Positions 45,111-61,428 of a stretch of 64,000 nt of DNA are shown in pieces. The stretch comes from an uncultured Mollicutes bacterium. GTDB lineage: Bacteria; Bacillota_I; Bacilli_A; ML615J-28; CAG-313. The number at the start of each line of letters is the position of its first letter. The stretch's first letter is position 1. The translations under genes and the position numbers were made by a program. The notes beneath the pieces were generated by a model, which was not told where the DNA came from, did not search any database, and saw nothing but the letters and a program-made list of their open reading frames with translations. The stretch lies in NCBI GenBank assembly GCA_900548675.1, contig URLJ01000001.1, positions 73,855 through 137,854 on the forward strand. The letters are read 5' to 3'.

Positions 45111-45365
45111 AACATCATCAGGAGAAGGAAGGCGAAGGACTGAACCAAAAAGACAAAATATAATTATGTAAACCGTTCAGGTATTATGTAAACTATAAAT
45201 AAAATATGGCGTTTTGTCAAAAGGTCAAAAGGAGCTGGGTTTTGGTCGAAAAAGCTGGACTTCACCAGATGCAAAAAATTTAAAATTTTTTTCAAAAAAA
45301 AGCAGGAATTTTAAATTTTTTATAGAATATTATAATATAAAGATATGAAAGGAAGGAAGAAAAAA

Positions 45366-45860
45366 ATGGACGAAAAACAACTTTTTTTAGGAATAAGTAA
45401 AGAAAAATGGCTTGAATTATTCGAAGGGCTAGGAGGTTGCAACTGCTACGAGTTGTACTTTATATTTAAACATAATCTATATAAAATCGAATTGAAAGAA
45501 CTAGAGAACGATATAGTAAAAGTAGGAAGAGAAAGCAGTTCAAAAGGAGGACACTTAAAACTTAGACTTTATGTAAACAGTGCAAAGAAGCAACAATGGA
45601 TAATCAGCAACAAAGCAAAAAAAATTATGTCAGAAGAGAAAATGATAACATCAGCTAAAGAATTAAATTTAAACAAAGGGCAATTTTGTGAATACCTTTC
45701 AGCCAAAGCTAGAAAACAAGAATACACCCTAGATAATGTAAGATTTGACAAAGCTGGAGACGTAAACTTAAAAAGAAAAAAGATACAAGTAAAATTCGAG
45801 AACGCAAGTCTAACACAATTAAGAACAATAGCAAAGGTTGCTAAGCTAAACTTAGCTTAG
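45366..45860 (+). CDS. hypothetical early protein
   Basis: RBS GAAAGGAAGGAAG before ATG 45366. The upstream ATG at 45345 has no RBS. Confidence 0.4.
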   Translation: MDEKQLFLGISKEKWLELFEGLGGCNCYELYFIFKHNLYKIELKELENDIVKVGRESSSKGGHLKLRLYVNSAKKQQWIISNKAKKIMSEEKMITSAKELNLNKGQFCEYLSAKARKQEYTLDNVRFDKAGDVNLKRKKIQVKFENASLTQLRTIAKVAKLNLA

Positions 45861-45911
45861 TACCTTGCAAATATGATATAAAATAAATAAATAAAAAGGA
45901 GCTGTATTATT

Positions 45912-46094
45912 ATGAAAAAATTATTAGGTATGTTATTAGGAAGTATATTATTAGGAAGTGTTTTAATGTTAATATTAGGAGCTATAAACTGGTTCATTGA
46001 CTGGGCTACTATGGACGAAGGAAGGTTTATCCTATCAATGATAATCATAGGATATGTAGTTGTTAAAATGATAAAAAGAGAGCTAGAACTATAA
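45912..46094 (+). CDS. small hydrophobic membrane protein (60 aa)
   Basis: RBS AAAGGAG. Two predicted TM helices. Confidence 0.4.
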   Translation: MKKLLGMLLGSILLGSVLMLILGAINWFIDWATMDEGRFILSMIIIGYVVVKMIKRELEL

Positions 46095-46102
46095 CTAGCT
46101 CT

Positions 46103-46137
46103 TTATGTAAACCGCTTCTCGCGGCAAGTTTACATAA
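46103..46137. repeat. gene-terminal inverted-repeat element, family member A (TTATGTAAAC-GC core-GTTTACATAA)
   Basis: Arms at 46103-46112 and 46128-46137 flank CCGCTTCTCGCGG. Confidence 0.6.
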
Positions 46138-46225
46138 ATACTTTACTAAATTAATGAATTAATTAGTAGACTTATAAGTTTACATAATAACTTTACAAAT
46201 AAATAAATTATTTTTGTATAAACTA

Positions 46226-46254
46226 TTGACTTCTGGATAAAATAATGATATAAT
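46226..46254 (+). promoter_or_regulatory. consensus early promoter TTGACT-N17-TATAAT
   Basis: -35 at 46226-46231 and -10 at 46249-46254. One of roughly 38 near-identical promoters in 45-61 kb. Confidence 0.55.
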
Positions 46255-46281
46255 ATAAGAGTAGAAAGGAAAGGGATAAAT

Positions 46282-46473
46282 ATGGCAAATAAATTTATTA
46301 ATCATTTTACAGTTGCAGAATTGGAAATAATAAATTGGTACTTAAAACAAGCCCAAGAACAAGAAAGTAAAAGACTAAATGAAATGGGAGAAATAGCAAA
46401 AAAGAGATATATTGACTTAAGGTTTATAATTGTTAAAAACAAAAACTTAATTAAAAAATACAAAAAAGTTTAG
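46282..46473 (+). CDS. hypothetical small protein (63 aa)
   Basis: RBS AAAGGAAAGGG before ATG. Confidence 0.35.
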   Translation: MANKFINHFTVAELEIINWYLKQAQEQESKRLNEMGEIAKKRYIDLRFIIVKNKNLIKKYKKV

Positions 46474-46754
46474 CAAAATGCTAAACTTAATATAAAACAA
46501 TTATAATGGCATTTATTTACAAAGTAATTTTATTTTTCAATTTTATTTTAATTTTAATTTTGATTTTGATTTTATTTTGATTAACCCCAGCCCCTAAAAT
46601 AGAATTGCTTTAACCCCTATTTTGATTATAACCCCAAAATAATTTTAAAAAAATGTATAAAAACACTTGACAAAGGTTATAATATATAGTATAATATATA
46701 TATAATAAATAAGACAGATGATAAAGTCTTTAAAACATAGAAGGAGAGATGTTT

Positions 46755-47108
46755 ATGGAAAAATTAACAATTGCAAAGAAAAATGAAATTTTAAGAGAAA
46801 GAGCATTTGATATGCTAATTAAGGAAGGTTTACTAAATGACAAACTATTTAAGGTTGCAGGTTCAAAATTTATGGTAAATGTTGAATTTGAAGGAGAACA
46901 AGTTCCAGTAAGAATTGATTTTGTAGTTCCAAAAATTGACCCAGAAGATACTTGTCAATTTGCAGAAGATTTTGCAGAACTTTATGAACAAGAACAAGAA
47001 GGAAAAAGAATTGCAAAAGAAGAAAAACAAAAAGCAAAAGAAAAGAAAATTGCAAGAGATAAAGCATTAAGAGAGAAAAAGAAAAAAGAAAAAGAAGAAG
47101 GACAATAG
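46755..47108 (+). CDS. hypothetical protein, paralog family A (lysine-rich C-terminal tail)
   Basis: RBS AAGGAGAG 6 nt before ATG 46755. Paralogous to the 49575-49946 product (shared L-x-AK-E, VRIDxVVPK, AEDxxxL, K-rich tail). Confidence 0.45.
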   Translation: MEKLTIAKKNEILRERAFDMLIKEGLLNDKLFKVAGSKFMVNVEFEGEQVPVRIDFVVPKIDPEDTCQFAEDFAELYEQEQEGKRIAKEEKQKAKEKKIARDKALREKKKKEKEEGQ

Positions 47109-47120
47109 TCCTTCTTTTTT
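47091..47120 (+). terminator. intrinsic terminator
   Basis: GAAGGAC-aata-GTCCTTC followed by T7. Confidence 0.5.
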
Positions 47121-47138
47121 TATTTTATTGTAAAGATA

Positions 47139-47200
47139 TTATGTAAACCTTTATGTAAAGGTATTATGTTAACCGCTTCCGGCGCCCGAAGTTTACATAA
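47139..47200. repeat. gene-terminal inverted-repeat element B (three left-arm copies, GC core CCGGCGCCCG, right arm GTTTACATAA)
   Basis: Left arms TTATGTAAAC at 47139 and 47151 and TTATGTTAAC at 47165. Right arm at 47191-47200. Confidence 0.55.
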
Positions 47201-47313
47201 CAACTTACAAATAATTTAAAAATATTTTAATTTTTTTTGCATATTTTACTTGACATTTGGAAATAATTATAGTATAATATAATTACAAAAGGGAAAGGTA
47301 AAAGGTGGTTAAT

Positions 47314-47790
47314 ATGAAAAAAATATTTTTAGATTTAGATGGAACATTAGCAAAATTTAATGTAAGAAATGCTTTACAAAGATTTGATAAAGAAATTGGC
47401 TTTTTTGCAAAACTTGGAGCATATAAAGGAATTGAAACAATAAACGAATTAGCAAAAAATGGAAATGTATATATAATTTCAGCAAGTCCAAACACACAAG
47501 CAGATTTTGACAAAATAGTTTGGATAGAAAAATATTTAAACAATATACCAAAAGCAAATAGGCTAATTTGTAGAGTTGGAGAAAACAAAGCAGAATATTT
47601 AAAAACAAAAGGAATACAAATTGACAAAAATTGTTATTTGTTAGATGATTACACAAAAAACTTAACAGAATGGGAAACAGTTGGAGGAGTAGGCATTAAA
47701 AGAATTACAAAATGTGCTGATAATTCAACAAAAAAATGGTTAGGTTTAGAATTAAAAGATTTATGTAAACTAAGCGAAGTTTTGGCTTAG
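47314..47790 (+). CDS. HAD-superfamily 5'(3')-deoxyribonucleotidase-like protein (paralog 1)
   Basis: HAD motif I DLDGTL at the N-terminus. Later DD and K motifs. Paralogous to the 60875-61378 product. Confidence 0.5.
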   Translation: MKKIFLDLDGTLAKFNVRNALQRFDKEIGFFAKLGAYKGIETINELAKNGNVYIISASPNTQADFDKIVWIEKYLNNIPKANRLICRVGENKAEYLKTKGIQIDKNCYLLDDYTKNLTEWETVGGVGIKRITKCADNSTKKWLGLELKDLCKLSEVLA

Positions 47791-47825
47791 TTTTTCTTTT
47801 TGACAACCCGCTTCTGGTAAAGTTA

Positions 47826-47865
47826 TTATGTTAACTTGGCGCGCCGTCCAAAAAGGTTTACATAA
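47826..47865. repeat. gene-terminal inverted-repeat element C
   Basis: TTATGTTAAC (47826-47835)...GGCGCGCC...GTTTACATAA (47856-47865). Confidence 0.6.
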
Positions 47866-47958
47866 TATGTTGCAAATAAATTAAAAAATTTTTGCATAAA
47901 CTATTGACAAAAGGGAATAATAGTAGTATAATTAATACAACAAAGGGGGAATATAAAA

Positions 47959-48273
47959 ATGAAATTTATAAATATGATAAGAGAAATTATGCAAATGGAT
48001 ATTGAAAAAGGATTTAAAAGAAAAATGTTATTTTTGGGTTGTTTAGAGGCAATTTTAGGAGCTTATAAACTATTAATAAAATTACCAGTATATTTTTTTG
48101 GTTTACCTTTTAATATTTTACACAAAATTGGTGAATTTGTTGCTGATGGTTGTATGAATATAATGTGGGCTATTGATGAGTTACCAGATGTCAAATTGGC
48201 TAAAAAAGAAGACAAAGATATATTAGTTCAAAAATTAAAAGAAAAATATAATAGAAAAGTATTGACAAAATAA
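47959..48273 (+). CDS. hypothetical protein with hydrophobic segment
   Basis: RBS AAAGGGGGAA. 104 aa. Confidence 0.4.
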   Translation: MKFINMIREIMQMDIEKGFKRKMLFLGCLEAILGAYKLLIKLPVYFFGLPFNILHKIGEFVADGCMNIMWAIDELPDVKLAKKEDKDILVQKLKEKYNRKVLTK

Positions 48274-48322
48274 AATGTATATGTTATAATATAATTAAGT
48301 TAAGAGAAGGGAAGAGATTAAA

Positions 48323-49021
48323 ATGAAAATTGATAAAAGAAAAAAATATTTAATGGTGTTAGATGTTGAAACTGCAAACTCAAATGTAGAAAAAGGTGCA
48401 AAAAACGATGGTTTAGTTTATGATTTAGGACTAACAGTAATTGATAAAAAAGGACAAATTTACGAAAAGAAAAGTTTTGCAATAAAAGAAATTTTTGACT
48501 GGTCTGAGCTTATGTCAACTGCTTATTATAAAAATAAATTACCAAAATATTATGAGAAATTAAAAAACAAAACAATGGAAAAAGTAAGTATTTGGACTGC
48601 ACGAAAAATAGTTAAAAATTTAATAGAAAAATATAATATAACAGAAGTTTATGCTTTTAATGCTTTATTTGATTATACAACATTAAATAACACAGTTAGA
48701 TATTTAAGTGGTTCAGGTTGTAGATGGTTTTTCCCTTATGGTACAAAAATATGTGATATTTGGCACATTGCTTGTCAAGTGTTAGGAACACAAAAAACTT
48801 TCCAATGGGAAAATGTTAGAAATGCAAAAGGAAATCTAATAACAAACGCAGAACGAATGTTTGGTTATATAGACCAAAATGAAGATTTTGAAGAAGAACA
48901 CACAGGACTTGCAGATACACTAATTGAGGGGCAAATACTTGTTCGTTGTTTTAATAATCATAAATCAATTGATAAAAAAATCAATAGAAGTTGTTGGAGA
49001 ATACCACAAAAAGTTGCTTAG
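48323..49021 (+). CDS. DEDDh 3'-5' exonuclease (DnaQ-like), paralog 1
   Basis: Exo I LDVETAN, Exo II YAFNALFD, Exo III HTGLADT. Paralogous to the 57683-58447 product. Confidence 0.55.
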   Translation: MKIDKRKKYLMVLDVETANSNVEKGAKNDGLVYDLGLTVIDKKGQIYEKKSFAIKEIFDWSELMSTAYYKNKLPKYYEKLKNKTMEKVSIWTARKIVKNLIEKYNITEVYAFNALFDYTTLNNTVRYLSGSGCRWFFPYGTKICDIWHIACQVLGTQKTFQWENVRNAKGNLITNAERMFGYIDQNEDFEEEHTGLADTLIEGQILVRCFNNHKSIDKKINRSCWRIPQKVA

Positions 49022-49049
49022 GCAACTTTTTCTTTTTGACAAAATAATA

Positions 49050-49116
49050 TTATGTTAACTTATCCCGCCGGCGCGAAAACGAACAAATGTTTGGTGTAAC
49101 CTTCAGGTTTACATAA
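49050..49116. repeat. gene-terminal inverted-repeat element D, enclosing a Cheo-box-like site
   Basis: TTATGTTAAC (49050-49059)...CCGCCGGCG...CGAACAAATGTTTG...GTTTACATAA (49107-49116). Confidence 0.6.
49080..49093. promoter_or_regulatory. LexA Cheo-box-like site CGAACAAATGTTTG
   Basis: GAAC-N4-GTTT matches the Gram-positive SOS box CGAACRNRYGTTCG with one mismatch. Confidence 0.4.
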
Positions 49117-49224
49117 TAACTTACAAATAATTGTCAAAAAGAATTTTAAAAAATTTTGTATATTCTCTTGACTTTTGCATATAATAGTAGTATAATAAAT
49201 ATATAAAGAAAAGGGGATGATAAT

Positions 49225-49362
49225 ATGAATGAAATAATTAATAGGTTAGTTGAAAATGCAATACAAAAATATGGATTTGAACACAAAAAGACAATAGCAA
49301 TTGTAAAAAATGCTGAAAACTTAAAAGAAAAATATGAGTTAGGAATTTTAAAAATTTGTTAA
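49225..49362 (+). CDS. small hypothetical protein (45 aa)
   Basis: RBS AAAGGGGATGA before ATG 49225, behind its own TTGACT-N17-TATAAT promoter at 49167-49196. Not in the ORF track because it is under 60 aa. Confidence 0.3.
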   Translation: MNEIINRLVENAIQKYGFEHKKTIAIVKNAENLKEKYELGILKIC

Positions 49363-49574
49363 AAAACTATTGACAAGATAAACAAAGTATGTTATAATAT
49401 AAGTACAGTAAGAAAAGAAGTCAAGACAAAATAAAAATAAAAAGTTTTAAAAAAGTCTTGACAAACACAATAAAGTATGTTATAATAAATACATAAAGAG
49501 AAGTAAAAAATCTTGAAAATTCTCTGAAAAGATTTATAAAAAAATTAAAATTTGAAAGGATTAGGTGATGTTTT

Positions 49575-49946
49575 ATGGCAAAATTAACAGTAGCAAAAAT
49601 CAATGAAATGGCAAGAGGAGTTGCAATGGAGGAAATAGCAAAAAATGGCTTAGTAAACTTCCTACAAATAGAAGGAACTAAATTTGCAAAAGATTTTGAA
49701 TTTGAAACAGAAGAAGGCAAAATGACAAAAACTGTAAGAATTGATGTAGTTGTTCCAAAATTAGAAGAAGGGGAAAATGCTGAATTTCTAGCAGAAGATT
49801 ACCAATTAAGACTAAAAGAAAAAAAAGAAAATGCTAAAGCAAAAGCAGAAGCAAAGGCTAAAAAAATTGCAAGAGATGAAAAAAGAAGAGCAGAAAAAAA
49901 GGCAAATGAAACAAACCCAGTAATTAAGAGAACTATAAAAGAATAG
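49575..49946 (+). CDS. hypothetical protein, paralog family A (second copy)
   Basis: Shares MxKLTxAK, VRIDVVVPK and AEDY motifs and a K-rich tail with the 46755-47108 product. Confidence 0.45.
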   Translation: MAKLTVAKINEMARGVAMEEIAKNGLVNFLQIEGTKFAKDFEFETEEGKMTKTVRIDVVVPKLEEGENAEFLAEDYQLRLKEKKENAKAKAEAKAKKIARDEKRRAEKKANETNPVIKRTIKE

Positions 49947-49949
49947 TCA

Positions 49950-49978
49950 AAAGGGCAAAATGCCCTTTTGTTTTTTGT
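49950..49978 (+). terminator. intrinsic terminator
   Basis: AAAGGGCAAAATGCCCTTT followed by TGTTTTTTGTTT. Confidence 0.55.
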
Positions 49979-49990
49979 TTGGTAAAGATA

Positions 49991-50035
49991 TTATGTAAAC
50001 CAAACATTTGTTCAGGCCGGCACAAGTTTACATAA
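49991..50035. repeat. gene-terminal inverted-repeat element E, enclosing a Cheo-box-like site
   Basis: TTATGTAAAC (49991-50000)...CAAACATTTGTTCAG...GGCCGGC...GTTTACATAA (50026-50035). Confidence 0.6.
50001..50015. promoter_or_regulatory. LexA Cheo-box-like site (reverse complement CTGAACAAATGTTTG)
   Basis: GAAC-N4-GTTT. Confidence 0.4.
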
Positions 50036-50127
50036 AATTCCAAAAATTTTTTAATAAAATTAGTATAAACTATTGACATTTGCACATAATAGTAGTATAA
50101 TATAAATATAGAAGGGGAGTTGATAAT

Positions 50128-50562
50128 ATGAAAAATAAAAAACTTATGGAGGCTAAAAAGTTAATTAAATCAATAGATAATGATATTCAAATCATTGTAG
50201 AAAGACACAAATATACAAGAGGGTTAACCTGTGAACCAACAGAAAAAAGAATTTATTTAGGTTTTAGGGCTACAAAAATTGAAAACCAAACATTCATAGA
50301 TTTAGTTAATGAATTAGAACCTAATTTCTTCCAGAAGTACAAAGTTAGTTTATGGCTATTAAGTGTATTACACGAAATAGGACACATTCAAACCCACGAT
50401 GAAGAACTTGAAGACGATTACAATTTTTGTGTTGATTTTCTTAATGAGTTGAAATTAAACAATGAAATTACAGAAAAAGAACAAAACGAATATTATGTAA
50501 GGTTAGACTTAGAACAAATGGCAACACAATGGGCAATAGATTATGTAAAGAAGGCATTTTAG
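50128..50562 (+). CDS. putative zinc metallopeptidase (HExxH; ImmA/IrrE- or SprT-like)
   Basis: HEIGH motif inside LLSVLHEIGHIQTHDEE, with a downstream Glu. 144 aa. Confidence 0.4.
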   Translation: MKNKKLMEAKKLIKSIDNDIQIIVERHKYTRGLTCEPTEKRIYLGFRATKIENQTFIDLVNELEPNFFQKYKVSLWLLSVLHEIGHIQTHDEELEDDYNFCVDFLNELKLNNEITEKEQNEYYVRLDLEQMATQWAIDYVKKAF

Positions 50563-50591
50563 CCTTCTTTTTTTATACCATAATTACCATT

Positions 50592-50627
50592 TTATGTAAA
50601 CTTGGCTTGCCGGCGCGGTTTACATAA
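50592..50627. repeat. gene-terminal inverted-repeat element F
   Basis: TTATGTAAAC (50592-50601)...GCCGGCGCG...GTTTACATAA (50618-50627). A degenerate Cheo-like CAAACATTTGTTTG follows at 50649-50662. Confidence 0.55.
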
Positions 50628-50689
50628 CAACTTTACATAATGCCGCACCAAACATTTGTTTGTCAAATTTCAACTCTTTATTGCCGGCA

Positions 50690-50835
50690 CGCTCGCAGCC
50701 TACTGTCAAATTTCTACCACCCTCGCCGCCTCCTAAGGAGCTGCAAAGGAGCTGGGAGCTGCGTTGTCAAATTTTCGCCAGGAGCTGCGTTCAACCTCCC
50801 AGGTTTACATAATATGTTTACAGGAGCTGCAAAGC
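50690..50835 (+). repeat. GC-rich GGAGCTGC repeat island with TGTCAAATTT x3
   Basis: (A/C)AGGAGCTGC occurs 5 times and TGTCAAATTT(C) 3 times. The track ORF 50640-50852 is judged a spurious product of these repeats. Confidence 0.5.
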
Positions 50836-50906
50836 CAACGTTTGACTTTTAGTACAAATTCATGTATAATTATATTATAGAAAAAATAAAGAAAGGGTTG
50901 ATTTAA

Positions 50907-51212
50907 ATGGGTAATAGAGATAGAATAATTAGATGGGACGACGAAAACAATGCACACAGATATTTTGTTAATGGCAGATTAGTAGGATGTGGATATGACT
51001 TTTTAGAAGTATTCGAGAAAGCTGCACCATTCTTACACATTGGCAGAGAAATAGTAACTCGTCAAGTTTGTCTTTGTGATATTGACAGCGACTTATCAGA
51101 TACAAAAACAGGTATGATAGTAGATTTCTTAAACGAAGCTAAAAGATTAACAGAATTTCAAGAAAAAGCATTATACGAATTTGACTTCACATCTTTGTTA
51201 GAATTGATATAA
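50907..51212 (+). CDS. hypothetical protein (101 aa)
   Basis: RBS AAAGGGTTGA. Promoter at 50845-50875. Confidence 0.4.
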   Translation: MGNRDRIIRWDDENNAHRYFVNGRLVGCGYDFLEVFEKAAPFLHIGREIVTRQVCLCDIDSDLSDTKTGMIVDFLNEAKRLTEFQEKALYEFDFTSLLELI

Positions 51213-51219: not shown

Positions 51220-51248
51220 TTGACTTTTAGTTAAAAGTGTTATATAAT
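51220..51248 (+). promoter_or_regulatory. promoter of the tRNA/ncRNA operon (TTGACT-N17-TATAAT)
   Basis: -35 at 51220-51225 and -10 at 51243-51248. Confidence 0.55.
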
Positions 51249-51280
51249 ATTATTATAGAAAATAAATAATATTTTCTTAG

Positions 51281-51612
51281 CGATGAAAACCACCGTATCA
51301 GTGGCTAGTCGCACACAAATCCTTAGGTCAGTAATTAAGCGCAGTCATGATGGGCTTAGTGAAGGATAAGGTTGACTGTTAGTGAACGAGGACTATCAAG
51401 TTATCAGTAGGAAGAAACTGTTCCCAGGTTGTTGGAATCGGGGTGAGAGAACCAACCAGACCGAAACTGAAAGAGGCTCCGCACCTATGCGTTAAATGGC
51501 GATAGCAGAGATTAGTTATCTGCGAGTAAGAGACATATTATTTAATTAGTGCACACTCTCTTGCGTGCGGGGTTTGTATCATTTAGAACTATAGTCGCCC
51601 CGCAATTTATAT
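51281..51612 (+). ncRNA. structured RNA with group-I-intron-like core motifs (R-like GAACGAGGACTATCA, S-like AGAACTATAGTCGCC); no exons recognised
   Basis: P7-like pairing between GACTA (51392-51396) and TAGTC (51592-51596). Many nested hairpins. Lies between the promoter and tRNA-Leu(TAG). No ORF. Confidence 0.3.
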
Positions 51613-51689
51613 GCATTAGTATGCAAACTGGCAAAGCAGCTGGTCTTAGAAACCAGTGTATGAAAGTTCGACTCTTTCCTAATGCACCA
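51613..51689 (+). tRNA. tRNA with anticodon TAG (Leu by codon table) but class-I architecture (5-nt variable loop)
   Basis: Acceptor GCATTAG/CTAATGC, A73, CCA encoded. Anticodon stem CTGGT/ACCAG around loop CTTAGAA. T-arm GAAAG-TTCGACT-CTTTC. Confidence 0.6.
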
Positions 51690-51757
51690 AATTATGGTTT
51701 GCGAGGCACCCATCGGTGAGAGCTGCACATCTCACATGAGAAAACCTCGGTGCATAT

Positions 51758-51844
51758 GCACCTTTGGCGGAATAGGCAGACGCGTGGGACTTAAAATCCC
51801 ATGGACGAGAGTCCGTCCCAGTTCGATTCTGGGAAGGTGCACCA
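51758..51844 (+). tRNA. tRNA-Leu(TAA), class II with long variable arm
   Basis: Acceptor GCACCTT/AAGGTGC. Anticodon stem TGGGA/TCCCA around loop CTTAAAA. Variable arm TGGACGAGAGTCCGT. T-arm CCCAG-TTCGATT-CTGGG. CCA encoded. Confidence 0.7.
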
Positions 51845-52002
51845 GCAGGGCGAACCCGTAACGTCCCTTTGCAAATAGAATATCGGGTGGTGTGGATAAG
51901 CGAAGCTACAATGCTCAATAATAGTAGTTCTTGTTATTTATTTTTTCGTATACCATTTGGGTATACAGAACGCGCGGCGTCGCAAGCGACAGCCGTTTAT
52001 AT

Positions 52003-52089: not shown

Positions 52090-52095
52090 TTATAT

Positions 52096-52171: not shown

Positions 52172-52254
52172 CAGCTACGCAAGTAGCGAAACACACCCCT
52201 TTCTTTTGTAGGTCAGCTGTCTCGTGTAGACCTGACAGCTGGCTAATTTCAAAT

Positions 52255-54858: not shown

Positions 54859-54913
54859 AAATACTTGACTTGTCCTTCCTTAAAGATTTATGATATAATG
54901 GGAGAGTATTATT

Positions 54914-54927
54914 AAAAAAAAAAAAAA
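54914..54927 (+). repeat. A14 homopolymer at the 5' end of an ORF-less transcript
   Basis: 14 consecutive A immediately after TATAATGGGAGAG. Confidence 0.7.
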
Positions 54928-55345
54928 TAGATCCCAGCTCCCTTAGCCTGATCCAGCTCCAAATCCCAGCTCCCACCTAAGGGGTTAGCTATGAGGGCGC
55001 AGCTCCAGATTGCTACCAGGGGATAGGTGGCAATGAATTATTTCCTGGGAAATATTTGCTAGCAAAAAATGGGTAGACTCCCCCCTCCCCTTCTTCTGGC
55101 AGTTAGATCTCATTACACGGCTCGGGTCTAACTATCGCCCACATAATTAATTTTTCTTTTCCTCCTTTCTTTATAATATAATTATACATCTTTCAGCTCC
55201 CAATAGTCAAGTATTTTTTGAAAAATTTTAGCAGCTCCCATTGCCCCCCACCTTCCAGCTCCCATAGCGCAGCTCCGGTAGGTAAAGCGCAGCTCCCACC
55301 CAGCTCCCAATAGGTGGCAATGCCAGCTCCCTGCTACCAAATTAT
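54928..55345 (+). repeat. CCAGCTCC(C) / ATAGGTGGCAA repeat island (the minus strand reads GGGAGCTGG)
   Basis: At least 10 copies of CAGCTCC and 3 copies of ATAGGTGGCAA in two blocks (54928-55010 and 55193-55345). Promoter-driven with no credible ORF; the track ORF 55182-55433 (-) is judged a spurious product of these repeats. Confidence 0.5.
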
Positions 55346-55492
55346 AGGTGGCAACACCTGATCTGATCCACCTTGACCGGATCTCTTGCCCTTGGGATAA
55401 TTTTTGCAATAAATTTTTAAAAAAGACTTGCATTTTACTCCATAATTTGATATAATTATATTGTAAATAAAAAAGAAAGGAAGAGTGGTAAA

Positions 55493-55672
55493 ATGAAACA
55501 AAAACTAATTAAAAAATTGCACGATCTAATGCTACAAATAATTACTTGTAATGATGCTGAACTTGACAAGATAGGAATTGAACTTGCCGAAATAGAAAAA
55601 CAATTAATTAATTGGCAAGAAAAAAATCTCAAAAAAAATAAAAAAATACTTGACTTTAAGGACAAGATGTAG
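55493..55672 (+). CDS. small hypothetical protein (59 aa)
   Basis: RBS AAAGGAAGAGTGG before ATG 55493. Its 3' end overlaps the next promoter. Confidence 0.35.
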   Translation: MKQKLIKKLHDLMLQIITCNDAELDKIGIELAEIEKQLINWQEKNLKKNKKILDFKDKM

Positions 55673-55740
55673 TATAATTAATATATCAAATGAAGAAATA
55701 AAAGAAAAGTAAAAAAAGTTAAAAAAATTAAAAAAAACAC

Positions 55741-55769
55741 TTGACTTTTAAATCTGAATTTGATATAAT
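55741..55769 (+). promoter_or_regulatory. consensus promoter TTGACT-N17-TATAAT
   Basis: -35 at 55741-55746 and -10 at 55764-55769. Confidence 0.55.
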
Positions 55770-55833
55770 ATATATGTAAATAAAAAAAGAAAGGGCATTA
55801 ACAAATTAGTCGGTTAATGTAATGGTGATTAAA

Positions 55834-56079
55834 ATGGCTAAAACAAAAGAATTATTTAATGTTAGAGGAGTAAACTTAACTGCTCACGAAAAAAATGTTT
55901 ACGACAAAGTAAAGGAATTAGGCACTGTTGACTACAACCAAGTAGCAACTGCTTGTAATGTATCTACTAAGTCTGCTATTGCAACATTAGCAAGATTAGA
56001 AAAAACTCACGGTTTATTAAGAAAAAATGAACCAGTAAAAGTAACTACTTATGAAGTTGCTGATGTAGAGGGCGAATAG
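55834..56079 (+). CDS. small winged-helix-like protein, family W paralog 2
   Basis: MAKTKELFNVRGVNLTAHEKNVYDKV...STKSAIATLARLEKTHGLLRKNEPVKVTTYEV. Confidence 0.45.
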   Translation: MAKTKELFNVRGVNLTAHEKNVYDKVKELGTVDYNQVATACNVSTKSAIATLARLEKTHGLLRKNEPVKVTTYEVADVEGE

Positions 56080-56092
56080 TCCTCTTTTTTTA
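56063..56092 (+). terminator. intrinsic terminator
   Basis: AGAGG-gcgaatagt-CCTCT followed by T7. Confidence 0.5.
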
Positions 56093-56104
56093 TTTACTGT
56101 AAAG

Positions 56105-56118
56105 CGAACAAATGTTTG
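56105..56118. promoter_or_regulatory. LexA Cheo-box-like site CGAACAAATGTTTG
   Basis: GAAC-N4-GTTT, 8 nt upstream of a TTGACA. Confidence 0.4.
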
Positions 56119-56207
56119 TCAAATACTTGACAAAAAATTTTTTTATTTTTTTTATTAAAAATACTTGACTTTGTGGGGGAAAGTGTGATATAATTAAAGG
56201 GGAAGTA

Positions 56208-56227
56208 TTTTTTTTTTTTTTTTTTTT
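56208..56227 (+). repeat. T20 homopolymer
   Basis: 20 consecutive T directly downstream of promoter 56170-56198, at the 5' end of an ORF-less GC-rich transcript. Confidence 0.7.
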
Positions 56228-56271
56228 AGTAGCTTCGCAGCTGCCACAGCAGCAGCTCAGCTCCCAGCTCC

Positions 56272-56291
56272 GACACACCCGGGTGCGTTGT
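56272..56291 (+). repeat. conserved 21-nt motif copy 1 (GACACACCCGGGTGCGTTGT)
   Basis: Member of the 7-copy family with consensus TGATACGCCCGGNTGAGTTGTA. Confidence 0.5.
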
Positions 56292-56352
56292 TGCCCCCCG
56301 TTAGGGGGTAAGGGGCTAGGTGGTTGCCCCTGGGTTGGGTTAACCCAAGATC

Positions 56353-56374
56353 TGATACGCCCGGTTGAGTTGTA
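56353..56374 (+). repeat. conserved 21-nt motif copy 2 (TGATACGCCCGGTTGAGTTGTA), flanked by AGATCT and preceded by the GGGTTAACCC palindrome
   Basis: Direct sequence match. Confidence 0.55.
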
Positions 56375-56403
56375 AGATCTTTTTGATCCGGGAGAGGATC
56401 TCA

Positions 56404-56425
56404 CGATACGCCCGGATGAGTTGTC
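56404..56425 (+). repeat. conserved 21-nt motif copy 3 (CGATACGCCCGGATGAGTTGTC)
   Basis: Direct sequence match. Confidence 0.55.
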
Positions 56426-56535
56426 TTTCATTATTATAATATAAAAAAACTTGAAAAACTTTTATAAAAATGCTTGACTTCTTTTTCTTTATTTGGTATA
56501 ATTAAGATGTAATAAAGAAAGGAAAGGTGTTAAAA

Positions 56536-56727
56536 ATGACTGAAACACAAGAATTGATTTTAAATAAGTTAGGGGAATTATGTAGAATTTATCCACAACA
56601 AAGATTAGGACAAATAATCTATAATTATATTTTAAGGTATTGTCCTAATAACGATTGTTTCTTTATAGAAGATACTAAACTTTTAGAATTATTAGAAACA
56701 ATTACAAAAGAAATTGAAGAAAAGTAA
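56536..56727 (+). CDS. hypothetical small protein (63 aa)
   Basis: RBS AGGAAAGGTG before ATG 56536. Promoter at 56473-56503. Confidence 0.4.
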   Translation: MTETQELILNKLGELCRIYPQQRLGQIIYNYILRYCPNNDCFFIEDTKLLELLETITKEIEEK

Positions 56728-56797
56728 AAAAAATACTTGACTTTAATTTCTACCTATGATATAATTAAGATGTAATAAAGAAAGGAAAGTGATAAAA

Positions 56798-56920
56798 ATG
56801 GCAATGACACCTGCAAAAAGACATCAAATAAGAGCAAAGCAAGAGGCAATGCAAAAAGCAAGAAAAGAGGAAAGACTTGGACTTGCTAAAAAAACAGCAA
56901 AGAAAAAGGGAAGAAAATAA
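56798..56920 (+). CDS. small basic protein (40 aa, Lys/Arg-rich)
   Basis: RBS AAAGGAAAGTG before ATG. Own promoter. Followed by the hairpin GGGAAGAAA-ataa-TTTCTTCCC. Confidence 0.35.
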   Translation: MAMTPAKRHQIRAKQEAMQKARKEERLGLAKKTAKKKGRK

Positions 56921-56964
56921 TTTCTTCCCCCCTCAAAAAAAATTAAAAAAAGTTAAAAAAGGTA

Positions 56965-56993
56965 TTGACATTTGACCTAATAAATGTTATAAT
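56965..56993 (+). promoter_or_regulatory. consensus promoter TTGACA-N17-TATAAT
   Basis: -35 at 56965-56970 and -10 at 56988-56993. Confidence 0.55.
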
Positions 56994-57045
56994 TAATATG
57001 TAAATGAGAGATAGCCACTCTCAAAAAGAAAGGAAAGTGATAAAA

Positions 57046-57291
57046 ATGGCAAAAACTAAAGAAACTTTTAATGTAAGAGGTGTAGAACTAACTGCACACG
57101 AAAAAAATGTTTATGAAAAGGTTGTAGAACTTGGAAAAGTTGACTATAATCAAATTGCTACAAGTTGTAATGTAAGTCCTAAAAGTGCGATAGCAACACT
57201 TGCTAGACTTGAAAAAACACACGGACTTCTAAAGAAAAATGAACCTGTAAAGGTTACAACTTACGAAATCGCCGAAGATATAGAGGACTAG
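57046..57291 (+). CDS. small winged-helix-like protein, family W paralog 3
   Basis: MAKTKETFNVRGVELTAHEKNVYEKV...SPKSAIATLARLEKTHGLLKKNEPVKVTTYEI. Confidence 0.45.
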   Translation: MAKTKETFNVRGVELTAHEKNVYEKVVELGKVDYNQIATSCNVSPKSAIATLARLEKTHGLLKKNEPVKVTTYEIAEDIED

Positions 57292-57308
57292 AAACCTCTA
57301 TATTTTTT
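57270..57308 (+). terminator. intrinsic terminator
   Basis: TATAGAGG-actagaaa-CCTCTATA followed by T7. Confidence 0.5.
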
Positions 57309-57320
57309 TATGTTCTAATA

Positions 57321-57334
57321 CGAACAAATGTTCG
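57321..57334. promoter_or_regulatory. LexA Cheo-box, perfect match CGAACAAATGTTCG
   Basis: Exact fit to the Gram-positive SOS box consensus CGAAC-N4-GTTCG. Confidence 0.5.
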
Positions 57335-57465
57335 CTTTTGGCCCCCCCAAAAAAAATTAAAAAAATTACAAAAAACTATTGACTTTCACTTGCATTTTTG
57401 CTATAATTATGTTAGAGGTGGAGGAGAGCCCCTTATAAAAAAGATCTTCCTTTAGATCATCTGAT

Positions 57466-57487
57466 GATACGCCCGGATCAGTTGTAT
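57466..57487 (+). repeat. conserved 21-nt motif copy 4 (TGATACGCCCGGATCAGTTGTA)
   Basis: Sits in an ORF-less unit behind promoter 57383-57412, preceded by the AGATCT...AGATC inverted repeat. Confidence 0.55.
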
Positions 57488-57682
57488 GGGTTGGGATGCT
57501 CCCAAAAAAATTAAAAAAAATATAAAAAAAGTATTGACTTTTGATTTGGTCTATGATATACTTAATATGTAATCAAGGAAAGACACCAAAGAAAAAAAAT
57601 AAAAAAAATTATAAAAAAGTGTTGACACTGATTAGAAAGTATGTTATAATAAATATGTAATTAAGAAAGGAAAGTGAATTAA

Positions 57683-58447
57683 ATGGAAACAAAAGGTTAT
57701 CCACAAAAACAAAAAAATATCAATGTTAGAAAGGTTAAAAATGTTTTAGGAATTGATACTGAAACTATAATGGACTTACAAAATGCAATGCCATTTGATA
57801 TCGGTTATGTTGTTTACAATAACAAAGAAGATAAAATCGAAAAACAAGGAACTTATCTTGTTAGAAAGTTTGTAAATAATAAATACATTATTTTATCAAG
57901 TTGGAGTGCTAACAAGTACGAAAGATATTATAAACCACTTTTAAACACTAAAACAAAAGATGTTAAAGTTGAAAGTGTAGAAAAAATAGCAAAAGAATTT
58001 GCTAAAATAATTAAAAAATATGATATCAAATATATGTTTGCACACAATGGACAATTTGATTATCAAGCACTTAAAAGATTATTTGAAGATGTTGGAGTTA
58101 AAAACCCTTTTGAAAATCTTGATATAATTGATACAATGATGTTAAGTTATAAAACTATTACAACTACAAAAGAATATGAAAACTTTTGTAAAGAAAATAA
58201 AAACATCACAAAATTACAAGATAAAAAAGTTGTTAGTCGTTTTATTACTGATAGTAATAGAGTAAGACAAACTGCCGAAAGTATCTTCGCATTTATAGAT
58301 AAAAATATTGATTTTGAAGAAAATCACACAGGACTTGAAGATATAAAAATTGAATTAGAAATCTTTAAGTATTGCAAGGGTAAAAAAGCAATTTTCCCTA
58401 TCAATACACAACCAACTTGGCGTGATTTTGCAAAATTAGAAAGTTAA
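57683..58447 (+). CDS. DEDDh 3'-5' exonuclease (DnaQ-like), paralog 2
   Basis: Exo I GIDTETI, Exo II HNGQFDY, Exo III HTGLEDI. Confidence 0.5.
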   Translation: METKGYPQKQKNINVRKVKNVLGIDTETIMDLQNAMPFDIGYVVYNNKEDKIEKQGTYLVRKFVNNKYIILSSWSANKYERYYKPLLNTKTKDVKVESVEKIAKEFAKIIKKYDIKYMFAHNGQFDYQALKRLFEDVGVKNPFENLDIIDTMMLSYKTITTTKEYENFCKENKNITKLQDKKVVSRFITDSNRVRQTAESIFAFIDKNIDFEENHTGLEDIKIELEIFKYCKGKKAIFPINTQPTWRDFAKLES

Positions 58448-58585
58448 AAAAACTTTCTTTTTTTTGTAAAAAAGTATTGACTTTATACCAAAACAATGCT
58501 ATAATTATAATGGGGGTGGATGATGATGATATATATAACAACGCCGCCTGGCGTGTCATAAACGTCCCCCTTGGGTTAACCCAAA

Positions 58586-58607
58586 TGATACACCTGGATG
58601 AGTTGTA
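58586..58607 (+). repeat. conserved 21-nt motif copy 5 (TGATACACCTGGATGAGTTGTA), preceded by the TTGGGTTAACCCAA palindrome
   Basis: Sits in an ORF-less unit behind promoter 58477-58505, whose transcript starts ATAATGGGGGTGG. Confidence 0.55.
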
Positions 58608-58745
58608 GACAAAAGCCTAGAATAAAAAAGTTAAAAAAGTTTTAAAAAACTATTGACAATGACCTAATACTATGCTATAATATATATGTAAGATAAAGAA
58701 AGATATATCTTACAAATGATTATTTAAGAAAGGAAAGTGATACAA

Positions 58746-58976
58746 ATGAATAATCAAAAAACTAAAAAAAGAGTATTAAAGAAAGGTGTTGAAAAGGTAT
58801 TCAGTACAATTGTTGCTATTTGGTTTTTTTGGATAATGACTACAATTGACACAATAGACAACCCATTTAATGAAATTAAAAGTTATTTAATCATTACTGG
58901 AATATTAACAATACTTGCCTTATTTAGTTTCATAATGCTAATGAAATACTCTAATTTATTTGAAGATGCCGACTAG
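58746..58976 (+). CDS. small membrane protein (two TM helices)
   Basis: RBS AAAGGAAAGTG. Hydrophobic segments FFWIMTTI and ITGILTILALFSFIML. Confidence 0.4.
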   Translation: MNNQKTKKRVLKKGVEKVFSTIVAIWFFWIMTTIDTIDNPFNEIKSYLIITGILTILALFSFIMLMKYSNLFEDAD

Positions 58977-59119
58977 TGCATCTTTTTTTATTATTGCATC
59001 AGGTATAAAAAAAATAAAAAAAAATTGCAAAAAAGTATTGACTTTTGTTTCACAAAATGATATAATTATAATGGGAGAGAATAATAATAATATAAAAAAA
59101 GATCTAGGGGTGGATCTGA

Positions 59120-59141
59120 TGACACGCGTGGGTGAGTTGTA
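59120..59141 (+). repeat. conserved 21-nt motif copy 6 (TGACACGCGTGGGTGAGTTGTA)
   Basis: ORF-less unit behind promoter 59036-59064. Preceded by AGATCTAGGGGTGGATCT. Confidence 0.55.
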
Positions 59142-59238
59142 AGAAAGTTAAAAAAAATTAAAAAACTTTTAAAAAAGTATTGACTTTAATCTAATAAAGT
59201 GGTATACTTAATATGTAATCAAGAAAGGAATGAAAAAA

Positions 59239-59601
59239 ATGAATTATAGAAACTTTAAAATTGAAATGGAAGAAAAGGACTTAAAGAAAACAAACTTAAT
59301 CTATAAATGGTTAATAACTATGAAAGATGGAAAAGTTGCTACTTATGTTGGAATATCAACAAGACCACTTGATGAAAGAACAAAAGAACACATAAGAGAT
59401 AAAAGAACATATTTTGATAAGTTCTTAACTGAAAATGAAAACAATATCAAAAGTATTAAAATTGAGGTTGTAAAAGAGTTAAAAAGAAACTTTAAAGATA
59501 TGAAAACACAACTTGAAAAAAGAGAAACTAAACTTATAATAAAAGATAAGTTAGAAAATGCTTTTAATCTTAATAGTAAAATTGATAAAAGATTTGCATA
59601 A
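59239..59601 (+). CDS. GIY-YIG-like endonuclease (divergent)
   Basis: LIYKWLITMKDGKVATYVGIS...R...EH fits the GIY...YIG...R...H/E spacing loosely. Confidence 0.3.
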   Translation: MNYRNFKIEMEEKDLKKTNLIYKWLITMKDGKVATYVGISTRPLDERTKEHIRDKRTYFDKFLTENENNIKSIKIEVVKELKRNFKDMKTQLEKRETKLIIKDKLENAFNLNSKIDKRFA

Positions 59602-59780
59602 AAAGTATTGACTTTTAAAAAGATATTTGATATAATAATATTGTCAATAGGAAATGAACTTAATAAAAAAAATTAAAAAAGTTAAAAAAACTATTGACAA
59701 TATCAATTATATTTGATATAATAAATATGTAAATAAGAAAAGAACTTATTTACAAGTAGCAAAGAAAGGAAAGTGATATT

Positions 59781-60026
59781 ATGGCTACAAAAAAAGAATT
59801 ATTTAATGTAAAGGGTGTTGAAATGACAGCACACGAAAAAATGGTTTTTGATAAGGTTGTTGAACTTGCAAGACCAGTAAGTTATAAGGAAATTGCAAAA
59901 GAGTGCAACATTAGTGAAAAAAGTGCTTGTGCTACACTTGCAAGATTAAATGCTACAAAGGGAGTTTTGAAGAAAAACGAACCTATCAAAGTTACAACTT
60001 ATGAAATAAATGAAGATATCGATTAA
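59781..60026 (+). CDS. small winged-helix-like protein, family W paralog 4
   Basis: MATKKELFNVKGVEMTAHEKMVFDKV...SEKSACATLARLNATKGVLKKNEPIKVTTYEI. Confidence 0.45.
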   Translation: MATKKELFNVKGVEMTAHEKMVFDKVVELARPVSYKEIAKECNISEKSACATLARLNATKGVLKKNEPIKVTTYEINEDID

Positions 60027-60040
60027 GATATCTTTTTTTT
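60008..60040 (+). terminator. intrinsic terminator
   Basis: AAGATATC-gattaa-GATATCTT followed by T9. Confidence 0.5.
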
Positions 60041-60251
60041 TAGTGCAAAAAAAAATTAAAAAAATTTGCAAAAAAGTATTGACTTTATACTTAAAGAGTG
60101 ATATAATTATAATGGGGGAGAATAATAATATATAAAAAAAACGATCTACTTTTGGATCACAAAAAAATGAAAAAACTTTAAAAAAAATATTGACTTTATA
60201 CCATTTATTTGGTATAATATATATGTAAGATAAAGAAAGGAATGATTAAAA

Positions 60252-60464
60252 ATGAAAAAGAAAAGAGTGTTAAAAAGTTGGGTTAAGGAAACATTATTAT
60301 TTATTGCTTGTGGTATTGCTTTATTTGGTTGTTTCAAGTTATTACAATTACAAGACCAACACGAATACAATAAAGCAATTGAAAGATGTGGAAGTGTTGA
60401 AAACCTAAACACACACTACACACAACAAGGCGACAAATACTACACTTGCAAGGTTGAAAAATAA
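60252..60464 (+). CDS. small secreted/membrane protein with N-terminal signal-like segment and a conserved Cys pair
   Basis: MKKKRVLKSWVKETLLFIACGIALFGC... resembles a signal peptide; a lipoprotein reading is uncertain. Confidence 0.35.
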   Translation: MKKKRVLKSWVKETLLFIACGIALFGCFKLLQLQDQHEYNKAIERCGSVENLNTHYTQQGDKYYTCKVEK

Positions 60465-60571
60465 CCTTGTAAGTGATAGAAAAAAAACTTAAAAAAGTTT
60501 TAAAAAAGTGTTGACTTTATACCAATAGTATGATATACTATATATGTAATCAAGGAAAGGAAAGTGATAAA

Positions 60572-60841
60572 ATGATTACTAGAAACCATAAAAACATTAT
60601 GAAATATGCAAACATAATGACAAACATTAAAGATATTGCAAAAGCAACTAAACAAACTGAAAGTCAAGTTGAAAGTGCAATAATCACACTTGCAAGAAAA
60701 GACTTAATGACAAAGTCAAAAGCAAAAGAACTTTTGAAAGACAAGAAGTCAGTTAAGTTCATAGACTTGCCATTTGGAAGTAGACTTGCAAAACCACTTC
60801 CAGTATCAACTGAAAAAGTAAAGACTATTTATTGCAAATAG
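60572..60841 (+). CDS. winged-helix-like protein, distant family W member (paralog 5)
   Basis: ATKQTESQVESAIITLARKDL parallels the (S/T)xKSAIATLARLEK core. Own promoter at 60512-60540. Confidence 0.35.
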   Translation: MITRNHKNIMKYANIMTNIKDIAKATKQTESQVESAIITLARKDLMTKSKAKELLKDKKSVKFIDLPFGSRLAKPLPVSTEKVKTIYCK

Positions 60842-60874
60842 TCTTTACAAAAAAAATGAAAGGAATTGATTAAA

Positions 60875-61378
60875 ATGAGAAAAGCCGATAACCTACCTAT
60901 TAAATGGGTGTTAGATATGGACGACACACTAGCACACTTTCACGAACAAAAAAACGCACTTGAAAGATTTGCTACTGAAAAAAACTTCTTTAATATTTTG
61001 AAACCTAGTAAAATGACAAAGTTTATCAAACAACTTGTTGAACGCAACGAACTTGACGCAAAAGATATTTTTATTGTTAGTGCTTCACCTAATGAACAAG
61101 CCGACAAAGATAAACTACAATGGATTGAAAGACACTTGCCTGAAATACCAAAAAGTAACATTATGTTTACAAGACTTGGAGAAAATAAAGCCGAATTGTT
61201 TATCAATAAATACCACTTATCAAAAGATGACTTCAAGTATTTTATGCTAATTGATGACTACACAAAAAACCTTATTGAGTGGAAAAACTTTGGTGGAATT
61301 GCTAAAAAGTACATCAATGAATACAACAACACAACAAAGAACTATCTTAACTACAACATCAGTACAATAGTATTATAA
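60875..61378 (+). CDS. HAD-superfamily 5'(3')-deoxyribonucleotidase-like protein (paralog 2)
   Basis: DMDDTLAHF (HAD motif I). Collinear with the 47314-47790 product (ISASPN, WIEKYL/WIERHL, GENKAE, LLDDYTKNL/LIDDYTKNL). Confidence 0.5.
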   Translation: MRKADNLPIKWVLDMDDTLAHFHEQKNALERFATEKNFFNILKPSKMTKFIKQLVERNELDAKDIFIVSASPNEQADKDKLQWIERHLPEIPKSNIMFTRLGENKAELFINKYHLSKDDFKYFMLIDDYTKNLIEWKNFGGIAKKYINEYNNTTKNYLNYNISTIVL

Positions 61379-61391
61379 ATGATAAATCAAA

Positions 61392-61417
61392 AGACTAATA
61401 ACAAAGTCTTTTTTATT
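61392..61417 (+). terminator. intrinsic terminator
   Basis: AAGACT-aataaca-AAGTCTT followed by T6. Confidence 0.5.
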
Positions 61418-61428
61418 ATAATAACTAT

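Follow-up and report, generated by a model that had tools for sequence, protein, structure and literature searches.

The 64,000-nt stretch of DNA analyzed here (the window; positions 73,855 to 137,854 of contig URLJ01000001.1, assembly GCA_900548675.1, deposited as an uncultured Mollicutes bacterium) carries a phage early gene island on the + strand at 45.3-61.6 kb, flanked on both sides by - strand gene blocks. Within this island, a DEDDh 3'-5' exonuclease and an NT5C-type HAD phosphatase each occur twice, as ExoA and HADa in cassette A and as ExoB and HADb in cassette B. The first-pass annotation had described this arrangement as a quasi-duplicated host-takeover region of a single phage. Comparison with related contigs argues for a different reading, in which the cassettes are the early cassettes of two phage lineages, A and B, that meet at a mobile intron, and the join looks chimeric. 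Judged from these sequence comparisons, the window is likely a chimeric metagenomic contig. Most likely, the quasi-duplicated early region does not exist as a real feature of a single phage, and the two cassettes probably do not lie within one real genome.

If the window is chimeric, bases 1-52550 would come from a lineage-A phage, whose early island contains HADa followed by ExoA, and bases from about 53112 to 64000 would come from a lineage-B phage, whose early island runs from ExoB to HADb. Both phages would carry an initiator-tRNA gene in the early island, and a near-identical 562-nt intron would occupy that gene across several co-occurring phage lineages. Because the intron is shared at 98-100% identity, the assembler could have crossed from A to B, entering the intron from phage A and exiting into phage B.

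The similarities on the two sides of the intron support this reading. A-type similarity (95-97% to contig L017 and 100% to L035 and L039 of our collection) stops at 52550, and B-type similarity (99.9-100% to L023-L027) begins at 53112; these limits coincide with the two intron ends. L035 matches the A side of the window with 0 differences; beyond the intron it has an A-type 3' exon and A-type genes, among them genes for 110- and 122-aa proteins and a metallophosphatase, without a cassette B. The B side is reproduced at 100% identity over 6.8 kb by L023 and L024, where it follows an intact B-type tRNA; the 10 kb upstream in these contigs contain unrelated genes and no cassette A. L039, likewise 100% identical to the window, breaks off 4 nt into the 3' exon, precisely where the A and B exons part, and L026 starts 43 nt before the intron end and runs on as B. 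An A-type 5' exon was combined with a B-type 3' exon only in the window and in the ENA contig NODE_71_length_144592 (L022/L034; hereafter NODE_71).

Two early cassettes and the lineages that carry them

Every open reading frame (ORF) named in the first-pass annotation is present at its place on the + strand. Cassette A has the order K-rich protein (46749-47108), HADa (47305-47790), 104-aa protein, ExoA (48323-49021), and a second K-rich protein (49575-49946). Cassette B has the order ExoB (57683-58447), 79-aa protein, GIY-like protein, winged-helix (wH) protein, 70-aa protein, 103-aa protein, and HADb (60866-61378). By BLASTP, ExoA and ExoB are 28% identical over 221 aa (E 1e-18), HADa and HADb are 42% identical over 155 aa (E 4e-36), and the two K-rich copies are 40% identical (E 1e-14). 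The earlier estimate by eye of 30-40% was thus roughly right, and the alignments are significant for all three pairs. The homology of the Exo and HAD pairs is far beyond chance. A promoter scan of the window found at least 30 near-consensus sigma-70 promoters, 11 of them perfect and all rightward on the + strand, which fits an early region read by the host polymerase and agrees with the early character first assigned to it.

The family assignments made at first reading were upheld by Pfam and phrog matches and by invariant motifs. HADa and HADb score 30.5 and 37.6 bits, respectively, with Pfam NT5C (PF06941), above its gathering score of 24.8 bits, and phrog_2643 (5'-3' deoxyribonucleotidase) was also matched in the family test. 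HAD motifs I-IV (DxDxT, SAS, K, DD) are complete, with D7, D9, T11, S56-A57-S58, K92, and D111-D112 invariant in 10 homologues. A single-sequence phmmer search with HADb, the only one of the two used, matched no solved structure in PDB. The NT5C family includes the human cytosolic and mitochondrial 5'(3')-deoxyribonucleotidases and YorS of the SPbeta prophage. HADa and HADb have in common with this family the PF06941 score and the DxDxT, S, K, and DD motifs, and differ in being short (158-170 aa).

Both exonucleases match phrog_20187 (E 6e-51 for ExoA). The Pfam match is marginal for ExoB (RNase_T, 24.5 bits vs. a cutoff of 24) and there is none for ExoA. The Exo I (DxE), Exo II (NxxxD), and Exo III (HxxxxD) residues D25, E27, N122, D126, H215, and D220 are invariant in 18 homologues, and the family profile matches the PolC exonuclease domain and RNase T. 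A single-sequence PDB search with ExoB gave nothing meaningful. An AlphaFold model of ExoB (mean predicted local distance difference test score 89.2) was compared with known folds by Foldseek; the best matches were oligoribonuclease (Orn), 3'hExo/ERI1, the DinG exonuclease domain, and RNase T, with probability 1.0, E down to 4e-5, and a target-normalized template modeling score of 0.6-0.7, the identity to any solved structure being 9-18%. At this 9-18% identity, the nearest folds are mostly RNA-acting enzymes. The window exonucleases share the complete motif set and, by the ExoB model, the RNase H-like DnaQ fold with DEDDh (DnaQ-like) exonucleases, and they differ from oligoribonuclease, RNase T, 3'hExo/ERI1, and the DinG domain by about 70 additional residues.

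We then asked where each cassette occurs. The lineage-A contigs (L001-L009, L017, L035, L039, and L051-L056) were read as fetched stretches, and the lineage-B contigs, gathered through ExoB homologues and through proteins encoded nearby, were L010, L011, L013-L016, L023-L032, and L042-L050, including ten of 76-130 kb from different cohorts. Lineages A and B are both SPbeta-like by their Pfam YonB, YonD, and YonG domains; megablast and tblastn searches for close annotated relatives among INPHARED phages returned nothing useful. In the lineage-A stretches only cassette A was present, with HADa near ExoA and with the repeat GTTTACATAA, and ExoB and HADb were not found there. In the lineage-B contigs only cassette B was present, and cassette A was not found within 10 kb. 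The lineage-B relatives keep the order of the right half of the window (wH copies, ExoB, GIY-like protein, wH, 70 aa, 103 aa, and HADb) together with its motifs. Among the A and B contigs read, only the window and NODE_71 have both cassettes.

The window proteins are 58-100% identical to orthologues elsewhere vs. 28-42% to their partners within the window. HADa is 62-85% identical to its lineage-A orthologues and HADb 58-100% to its lineage-B orthologues, as compared to 42% between the two. ExoA is 73-87% identical to its orthologues and ExoB 63-100% to those of lineage B, as compared to 28% between the two. A search with ExoA gave 918 homologues; among the 120 listed, identity is 75-100%. The cis-elements also track the lineages, GTTTACATAA with A and the heptamer CAGCTCC and a 20-nt motif, GAYACRCSYGGNTSMGTTGT, with B. 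Cassettes A and B are not collinear. Two protein families are common to both halves and no more, the K-rich pair being confined to the A half and the winged-helix protein, in four copies, to the B half. Since the window is most likely chimeric, the Exo and HAD 'paralogues' are, on this sequence evidence, most likely orthologous or exchangeable early genes of two phages and not in-genome duplicates.

The initiator-tRNA intron and the origin of the join

The switch lies within an initiator-type tRNA-Met gene. Its 5' half (52514-52550, + strand) is of A type, with the stem strand CCAGG; L035 and L039 have the identical 5' half, and the intact genes of L017 and L007 come close to it. Its 3' half (53112-53151, + strand) is of B type, with the stem strand CCCGA, and matches the corresponding portion of the intact tRNA of L023 and L025 at 100% identity. 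Between them a 562-nt group-I-like intron (52551-53112, + strand) occupies the anticodon loop and contains an HNH homing-endonuclease ORF of 133 aa (52618-53019, + strand). The intron aligns with Rfam RF00028 through its P3, P7, and P9 elements at 40.8 bits (E 5.7e-9), which is under the gathering score of 50. Its ends are fixed to within 1 nt by intron-less alleles of both lineages (L007, L017, L023, and L025), and removal of 562 nt restores the 7-nt anticodon loop CTCATAA in all contexts. By these alleles the last inserted base is an A, the boundary lying between ...GGTAAGTA and AACCC, and U36 is a possible last exon base. Canonical group I introns have G as their last base and follow a U at the end of the 5' exon. 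Group I introns are found in the anticodon loops of bacterial tRNA genes such as cyanobacterial tRNA-fMet and tRNA-Leu(UAA) and Azoarcus tRNA-Ile. The window intron resembles these bacterial introns in its initiator-tRNA anticodon-loop site and in the conserved core elements of its Rfam alignment, and differs from them in that it is located in phage genomes, carries an HNH ORF, scores below the Rfam cutoff, and, judged by the intron-less alleles, ends in A.

A near-identical intron is present in several phage lineages. The collection has 175 blocks with an identical HNH protein, which occupies one and the same site of the tRNA gene in several distinct phage contexts, and the intron DNA is 98-100% identical. 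No close relative of this HNH protein was found in IMG/VR, and the junction of 5' exon and intron, searched as an exact sequence, turned up in none of IMG/VR, the JGI metagenome contigs, and the GTDB genomes. In the hybrid tRNA of the window, C27·A43 and A29·C41 are mismatched, that is, two of the five anticodon-stem pairs, and in all five other intron-bearing contigs that were read across both junctions (three contexts) the exon halves are complementary. The intron was seen adjoining A sequence upstream (L035, L039) and B sequence downstream (L026), and a complete B-type intron-bearing allele was not seen. Such an allele is predicted to have the B 5' exon TCGGGCTCATA adjoining GAAAATTGTGG.

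The comparison of the window with NODE_71 is also informative. The two contigs have 0 differences in 10,494 nt of A sequence and 12 in 9,910 nt of B sequence (p about 1.7e-4). The B alleles of the window match L023 and L025, and 8 of the 12 NODE_71 variants match L028. These uneven differences indicate that one A strain was joined to two B strains. The coverage given in the NODE_71 header is about 6x. If the molecule continued past 64 kb as the B contigs do, it would have two diverged packaging/capsid sets, because an A set is already present at 36-44.6 kb in the window. The longest contig on record is 180,928 nt long in two cases, for exact matches to the A-type proteins encoded downstream in L035 and for exact matches to the proteins of the B-type capsid/terminase block; this is probably one contig with both sets and a further co-assembly. 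Over-length contigs of 180,928, 194,747, and 210,798 nt in the collection carry lineage-B capsid or terminase proteins.

Chimeric contigs joining different genomes have been benchmarked in short-read viromes and metagenomes (PMC3901335, PMC5610896). Such contigs resemble the window in involving co-occurring related genomes and a near-identical repeat longer than the k-mer, in switching inside the repeat, and in being broken there in other assemblies. The window differs from them in that the repeat is a mobile group-I-like intron in a phage tRNA, so that real homing-associated recombination could give the same structure. Several observations weigh against a chimera. At least two contigs that differ in sequence, namely the window and NODE_71, have the A-to-B join. 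The 144.6-kb length of NODE_71 is compatible with some lineage-A genomes (139-143 kb), and we dropped an argument that it is too long for this reason. The intron/B-exon 3' junction shares only 14 nt with any other allele, so this junction must be physically real, and homing or recombination into a B-type gene did therefore occur. A B-type 5' exon beside the intron was not found among the 23 longest intron-bearing contigs read. One contig of a lineage other than A or B, L057, has two exonuclease paralogues in one island, which makes a two-copy genome not implausible in this group. Finally, homing endonuclease genes mark real borders of genetic exchange between phages (PMC10448857).

The rival reading is a real recombinant, in which HNH would have cut an intron-less initiator-tRNA gene in a co-infected cell and repair by crossover would have fused the left part of A to the right early region of B. 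The position of the switch exactly at a homing-endonuclease intron fits this explanation, as do the physically real intron/B-exon junction, the shared architecture of the window and NODE_71, the two exonuclease paralogues of L057, and gene swapping between lineages in L041 and L012. In ICP1, an HNH gene is likewise found exactly where similarity passes from one lineage to another, and nuclease genes lie at exchange borders (PMC10448857), but the exchanged segments of ICP1 belong to one shared architecture, whereas here the layouts differ and the packaging proteins are 26-34% identical. Since island and capsid genes are arranged differently in the two lineages, a single crossover would leave two terminase/capsid sets and lose one arm of each parent. 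The mismatched anticodon stem of the hybrid tRNA, the 99.9-100% identity of each side to non-hybrid genomes from the same cohorts, the joining of one A strain to two B strains, and the breaking of other assemblies' contigs at the intron edges also speak against it. We therefore regard a real recombinant as rather unlikely, and the fuller proposal, an intron-mediated crossover on a genome scale that gave a viable hybrid in which two diverged cassettes are combined with two different promoter and operator sets for early genes, as unlikely. The acquisition of two versions, one of the two origins offered in the first-pass annotation, survives only as this minority reading. The other, an old tandem or segmental duplication in one phage followed by divergence and gene shuffling, would account for the significant similarity of the paralogues and for their common strand and early region, and real within-lineage paralogy does exist for the K-rich (two copies) and winged-helix (four copies) proteins. 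It is contradicted by the lineage distribution of the cassettes: no lineage-A or lineage-B relative has both in the stretches read. Moreover, other phages carry orthologues to which each copy is far closer than to its partner, the cassettes are not collinear, the cis-elements differ between the halves, and the switch occurs at a mobile intron, with 100%-identical parents for both sides. We consider an old duplication very improbable and agree with the earlier statement that there was no recent one. Thus, a chimeric contig is the reading we prefer.

Other features of the two halves

The lineage-A packaging/capsid block (36060-44644, - strand) encodes proteins of 336, 185, 474, 524, 593, 339, and 426 aa and is 96.7% identical in nucleotide sequence to L017. 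It contains a terminase-like protein of 593 aa (40564-42345, - strand), a YonG_N protein of 339 aa, and a protein of 336 aa (36060-37070, - strand) that is the counterpart, by position alone, of the lineage-B 338-aa protein with a YonB domain. The 426-, 339-, and 593-aa A proteins are 26-34% identical to their B counterparts of 375, 330, and 588 aa; in the remainder of the block the order is the same and the sizes are similar in B (521, 448, 173, and 338 aa). GenBank third-party annotation names the B-type 588-aa protein as large terminase and the 338-aa protein as major capsid protein.

The lineage-A early island (45345-51212, + strand) consists of small ORFs, each with its own TTGACA-17-TATAAT promoter, and is 100% identical to L039 and L035. 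Inverted repeats of TTATGTAAAC and GTTTACATAA are found in each intergenic gap of the island (45164-50812), where they flank short GC-rich cores. GTTTACATAA has 33 matches vs. 14.7 expected, the exact ones clustering at 45.1-50.8 kb; it is kept in the lineage-A loci L001-L009 (8-20 copies per locus) and is absent from the B loci L010 and L011. From their sequence and position, the TTATGTAAAC...GTTTACATAA repeats look like candidate operators for a dimeric regulator. The lineage-A relative L007 likewise has both K-rich copies. A noncoding stretch of about 350 nt (51262-51612), with its own promoter (51220-51248), precedes the tRNA cluster; its core of about 160 nt is strongly conserved with L007 (8622-9008), and its flanks have diverged. 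It had no Rfam match, and its conservation makes a structured RNA possible. The tRNA cluster itself (51613-52382, + strand; ARAGORN and Rfam) contains Leu, Leu, Tyr, Gln, and Val, in the same order as in L007.

On the B side, just 3' of the initiator tRNA, a variable slot (53151-53472) is bounded by ATAGAAGATCA and ACTGATTTTTAAG. In the window it holds a free-standing GIY-YIG endonuclease gene (53169-53459, + strand; PF01541), whose exact protein is present in pure lineage-B contigs. The slot is vacant in L014 and L016, and in L013 (5698-6046) it holds a different insert with direct repeats of about 33 nt and a small ORF. The lineage-B early island (53454-61420, + strand) has A-tract UP elements and TTGACT-17-TGnTATAAT promoters, contains the repeat families D1, D2, D4, D7, and D12, includes an HNH gene (54367-54858, + strand), and is 97-100% identical in nucleotide sequence to L013-L016 and L023-L027. 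The four winged-helix paralogues (53713-54000, 55822-56079, 57004-57291, and 59781-60026, + strand) are Fe_dep_repress/TrmB-like proteins of 81-95 aa that are mutually 52-86% identical, each with its own promoter; 60530-60841 is possibly a further copy. Three or four copies are retained in all lineage-B relatives. In this set, in contrast to the Exo and HAD pairs, the paralogues truly belong to one genome.

The 20-nt motif GAYACRCSYGGNTSMGTTGT occurs in eight copies, with none expected, over 56272-61850 (at 56272, 56354, 56405, 57466, 58538 on the - strand, 58587, 59121, and 61831), and also in L010 (121-234). The copies at 56405, 57466, 58587, and 59121 lie 40-50 nt 5' of a -35 box. The motif can fold into a small hairpin, RUGAY-A-CRC-loop-GYG-A-GUUGU, in which some of the changes are compensating, and Rfam gave no match to it. 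It could act as an RNA element or as a site bound by a protein, perhaps by the four winged-helix paralogues. CAGCTCC occurs 28 times in the window vs. 2.3 expected and is concentrated in ORF-free GC-rich stretches 3' of strong promoters, with clusters at 54935-55330 and 56258-56271 (+) and 50737-50829 (-); it is also present in L010 and L011, which are diverged lineage-B loci. The GC-rich noncoding stretches of the B half had no Rfam match, and we rejected them as known RNAs, their folding z-scores being weak and inconsistent (-3.0 to +1.1). Downstream of six strong promoters (54894, 56194, 57407, 58505, 59066, and 60107), no ORF reaches 50 aa; noncoding sequence of 45-230 nt extends to the A-tract of the next promoter, and at four of the six (54894, 58505, 59066, and 60107) the -10 box leads directly into ATGGGRG. 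These sites are candidates for short early RNAs or for leaderless mini-ORFs such as MGENNNI*.

Beyond cassette B, a lineage-B block (61975-63943, - strand) encodes proteins of 94, 129, 228, 114, and 77 aa and is 96.9-100% identical in nucleotide sequence to pure B contigs. The 228-aa protein of NODE_71 differs from that of the window by one residue (V to I). All B contigs read past this block (L013-L016, L028-L032, and L041-L050) continue within about 1.3 kb into the B-type 375-aa, YonG, and terminase-to-capsid genes.

A mobile exonuclease and nucleotidase pair in phage early regions

The early pairing of a DEDDh exonuclease with an NT5C nucleotidase suggests degradation of nucleic acid to mononucleotides followed by their dephosphorylation. 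The host RNA polymerase would transcribe the cassette from the strong sigma-70 promoters straight after infection, the DEDDh enzyme would trim nucleic acid 3' ends to mononucleotides, and the NT5C-type phosphatase would then dephosphorylate the (deoxy)nucleoside monophosphates. By analogy with T5 (Dmp) or T4 (DexA), this suggests a role in host nucleic-acid disposal or in control of the nucleotide pool. T4 DexA is a functional analogue of the DEDDh exonucleases.

The parallel with T5 Dmp (deoxynucleoside-5'-monophosphatase) drawn in the first-pass annotation holds at most on the functional side and fails as a sequence relationship. According to the T5 annotation, the T5 pre-early region is likewise early and transcribed by the host polymerase, and combines small ORFs and numerous strong promoters with a (deoxy)nucleotide phosphatase gene. 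The BLASTP comparison of T5 Dmp with the window HAD proteins gave E 0.64, which is not significant, and only a DLDGT motif is common to them. Unlike HADa and HADb, T5 Dmp has no Pfam NT5C match, and a Pfam scan of Dmp gave no match of any family at E 0.01 or below. A reading of Dmp as an HD-domain enzyme was rejected in view of its DLDGT motif and the empty Pfam scan. No terminal repeat is evident in the window, unlike the location of dmp in T5. T5 pairs Dmp with A1-dependent degradation of host DNA; here the partner nuclease is a DEDDh exonuclease. T5 Dmp is at most a functional analogue of the window HAD proteins.

The mobile pair of DEDDh exonuclease and NT5C nucleotidase in phage early regions is real. 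The linkage of the two genes is frequent and not obligatory: L015 has no HAD gene, and L053, L057, and L058 have no NT5C-type match. Gene-level exchange between lineages is also real, as seen in L041, L012, L051, L052, and L056. In L041 (15479-16204) an ExoA-type gene (58% identical) occupies the ExoB slot of a B genome. In L012 (8766-10744) an HADa-type and an ExoB-type gene are found together, and in L051, L052, and L056 the order is Exo and then HAD. The two exonuclease genes of L057 (IMG/VR 3300045988_176702; 5513-10759) are 27% identical and 3.8 kb apart, with a PF12710 HAD gene between them. The true upstream lineage-B island, as found in L023/L024, encodes a different HAD protein (1723-2220; PF18143, HAD_SAK_2, a 'Swiss Army Knife' RNA repair HAD domain) and contains tRNA-Thr, tRNA-Ala, and tRNA-Gln genes.

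Should the hybrid be real, it would provide a clear example of distant phages recombining under the action of a homing endonuclease. If the window is chimeric, as we think likely, the duplicated host-takeover region should not count as phage biology, and the window, NODE_71, and probably the 180.9-kb contig would be examples of intron-driven corruption of catalogues of uncultivated phage genomes. The exonuclease and NT5C nucleotidase pair recurs in the early regions of very common SPbeta-like gut phages, with a varying order and with parts swapped between lineages, and a highly mobile intron sits in the initiator-tRNA genes of these phages. The recurrence of the pair and the mobility of the intron are the real, if modest, outcomes of this analysis.

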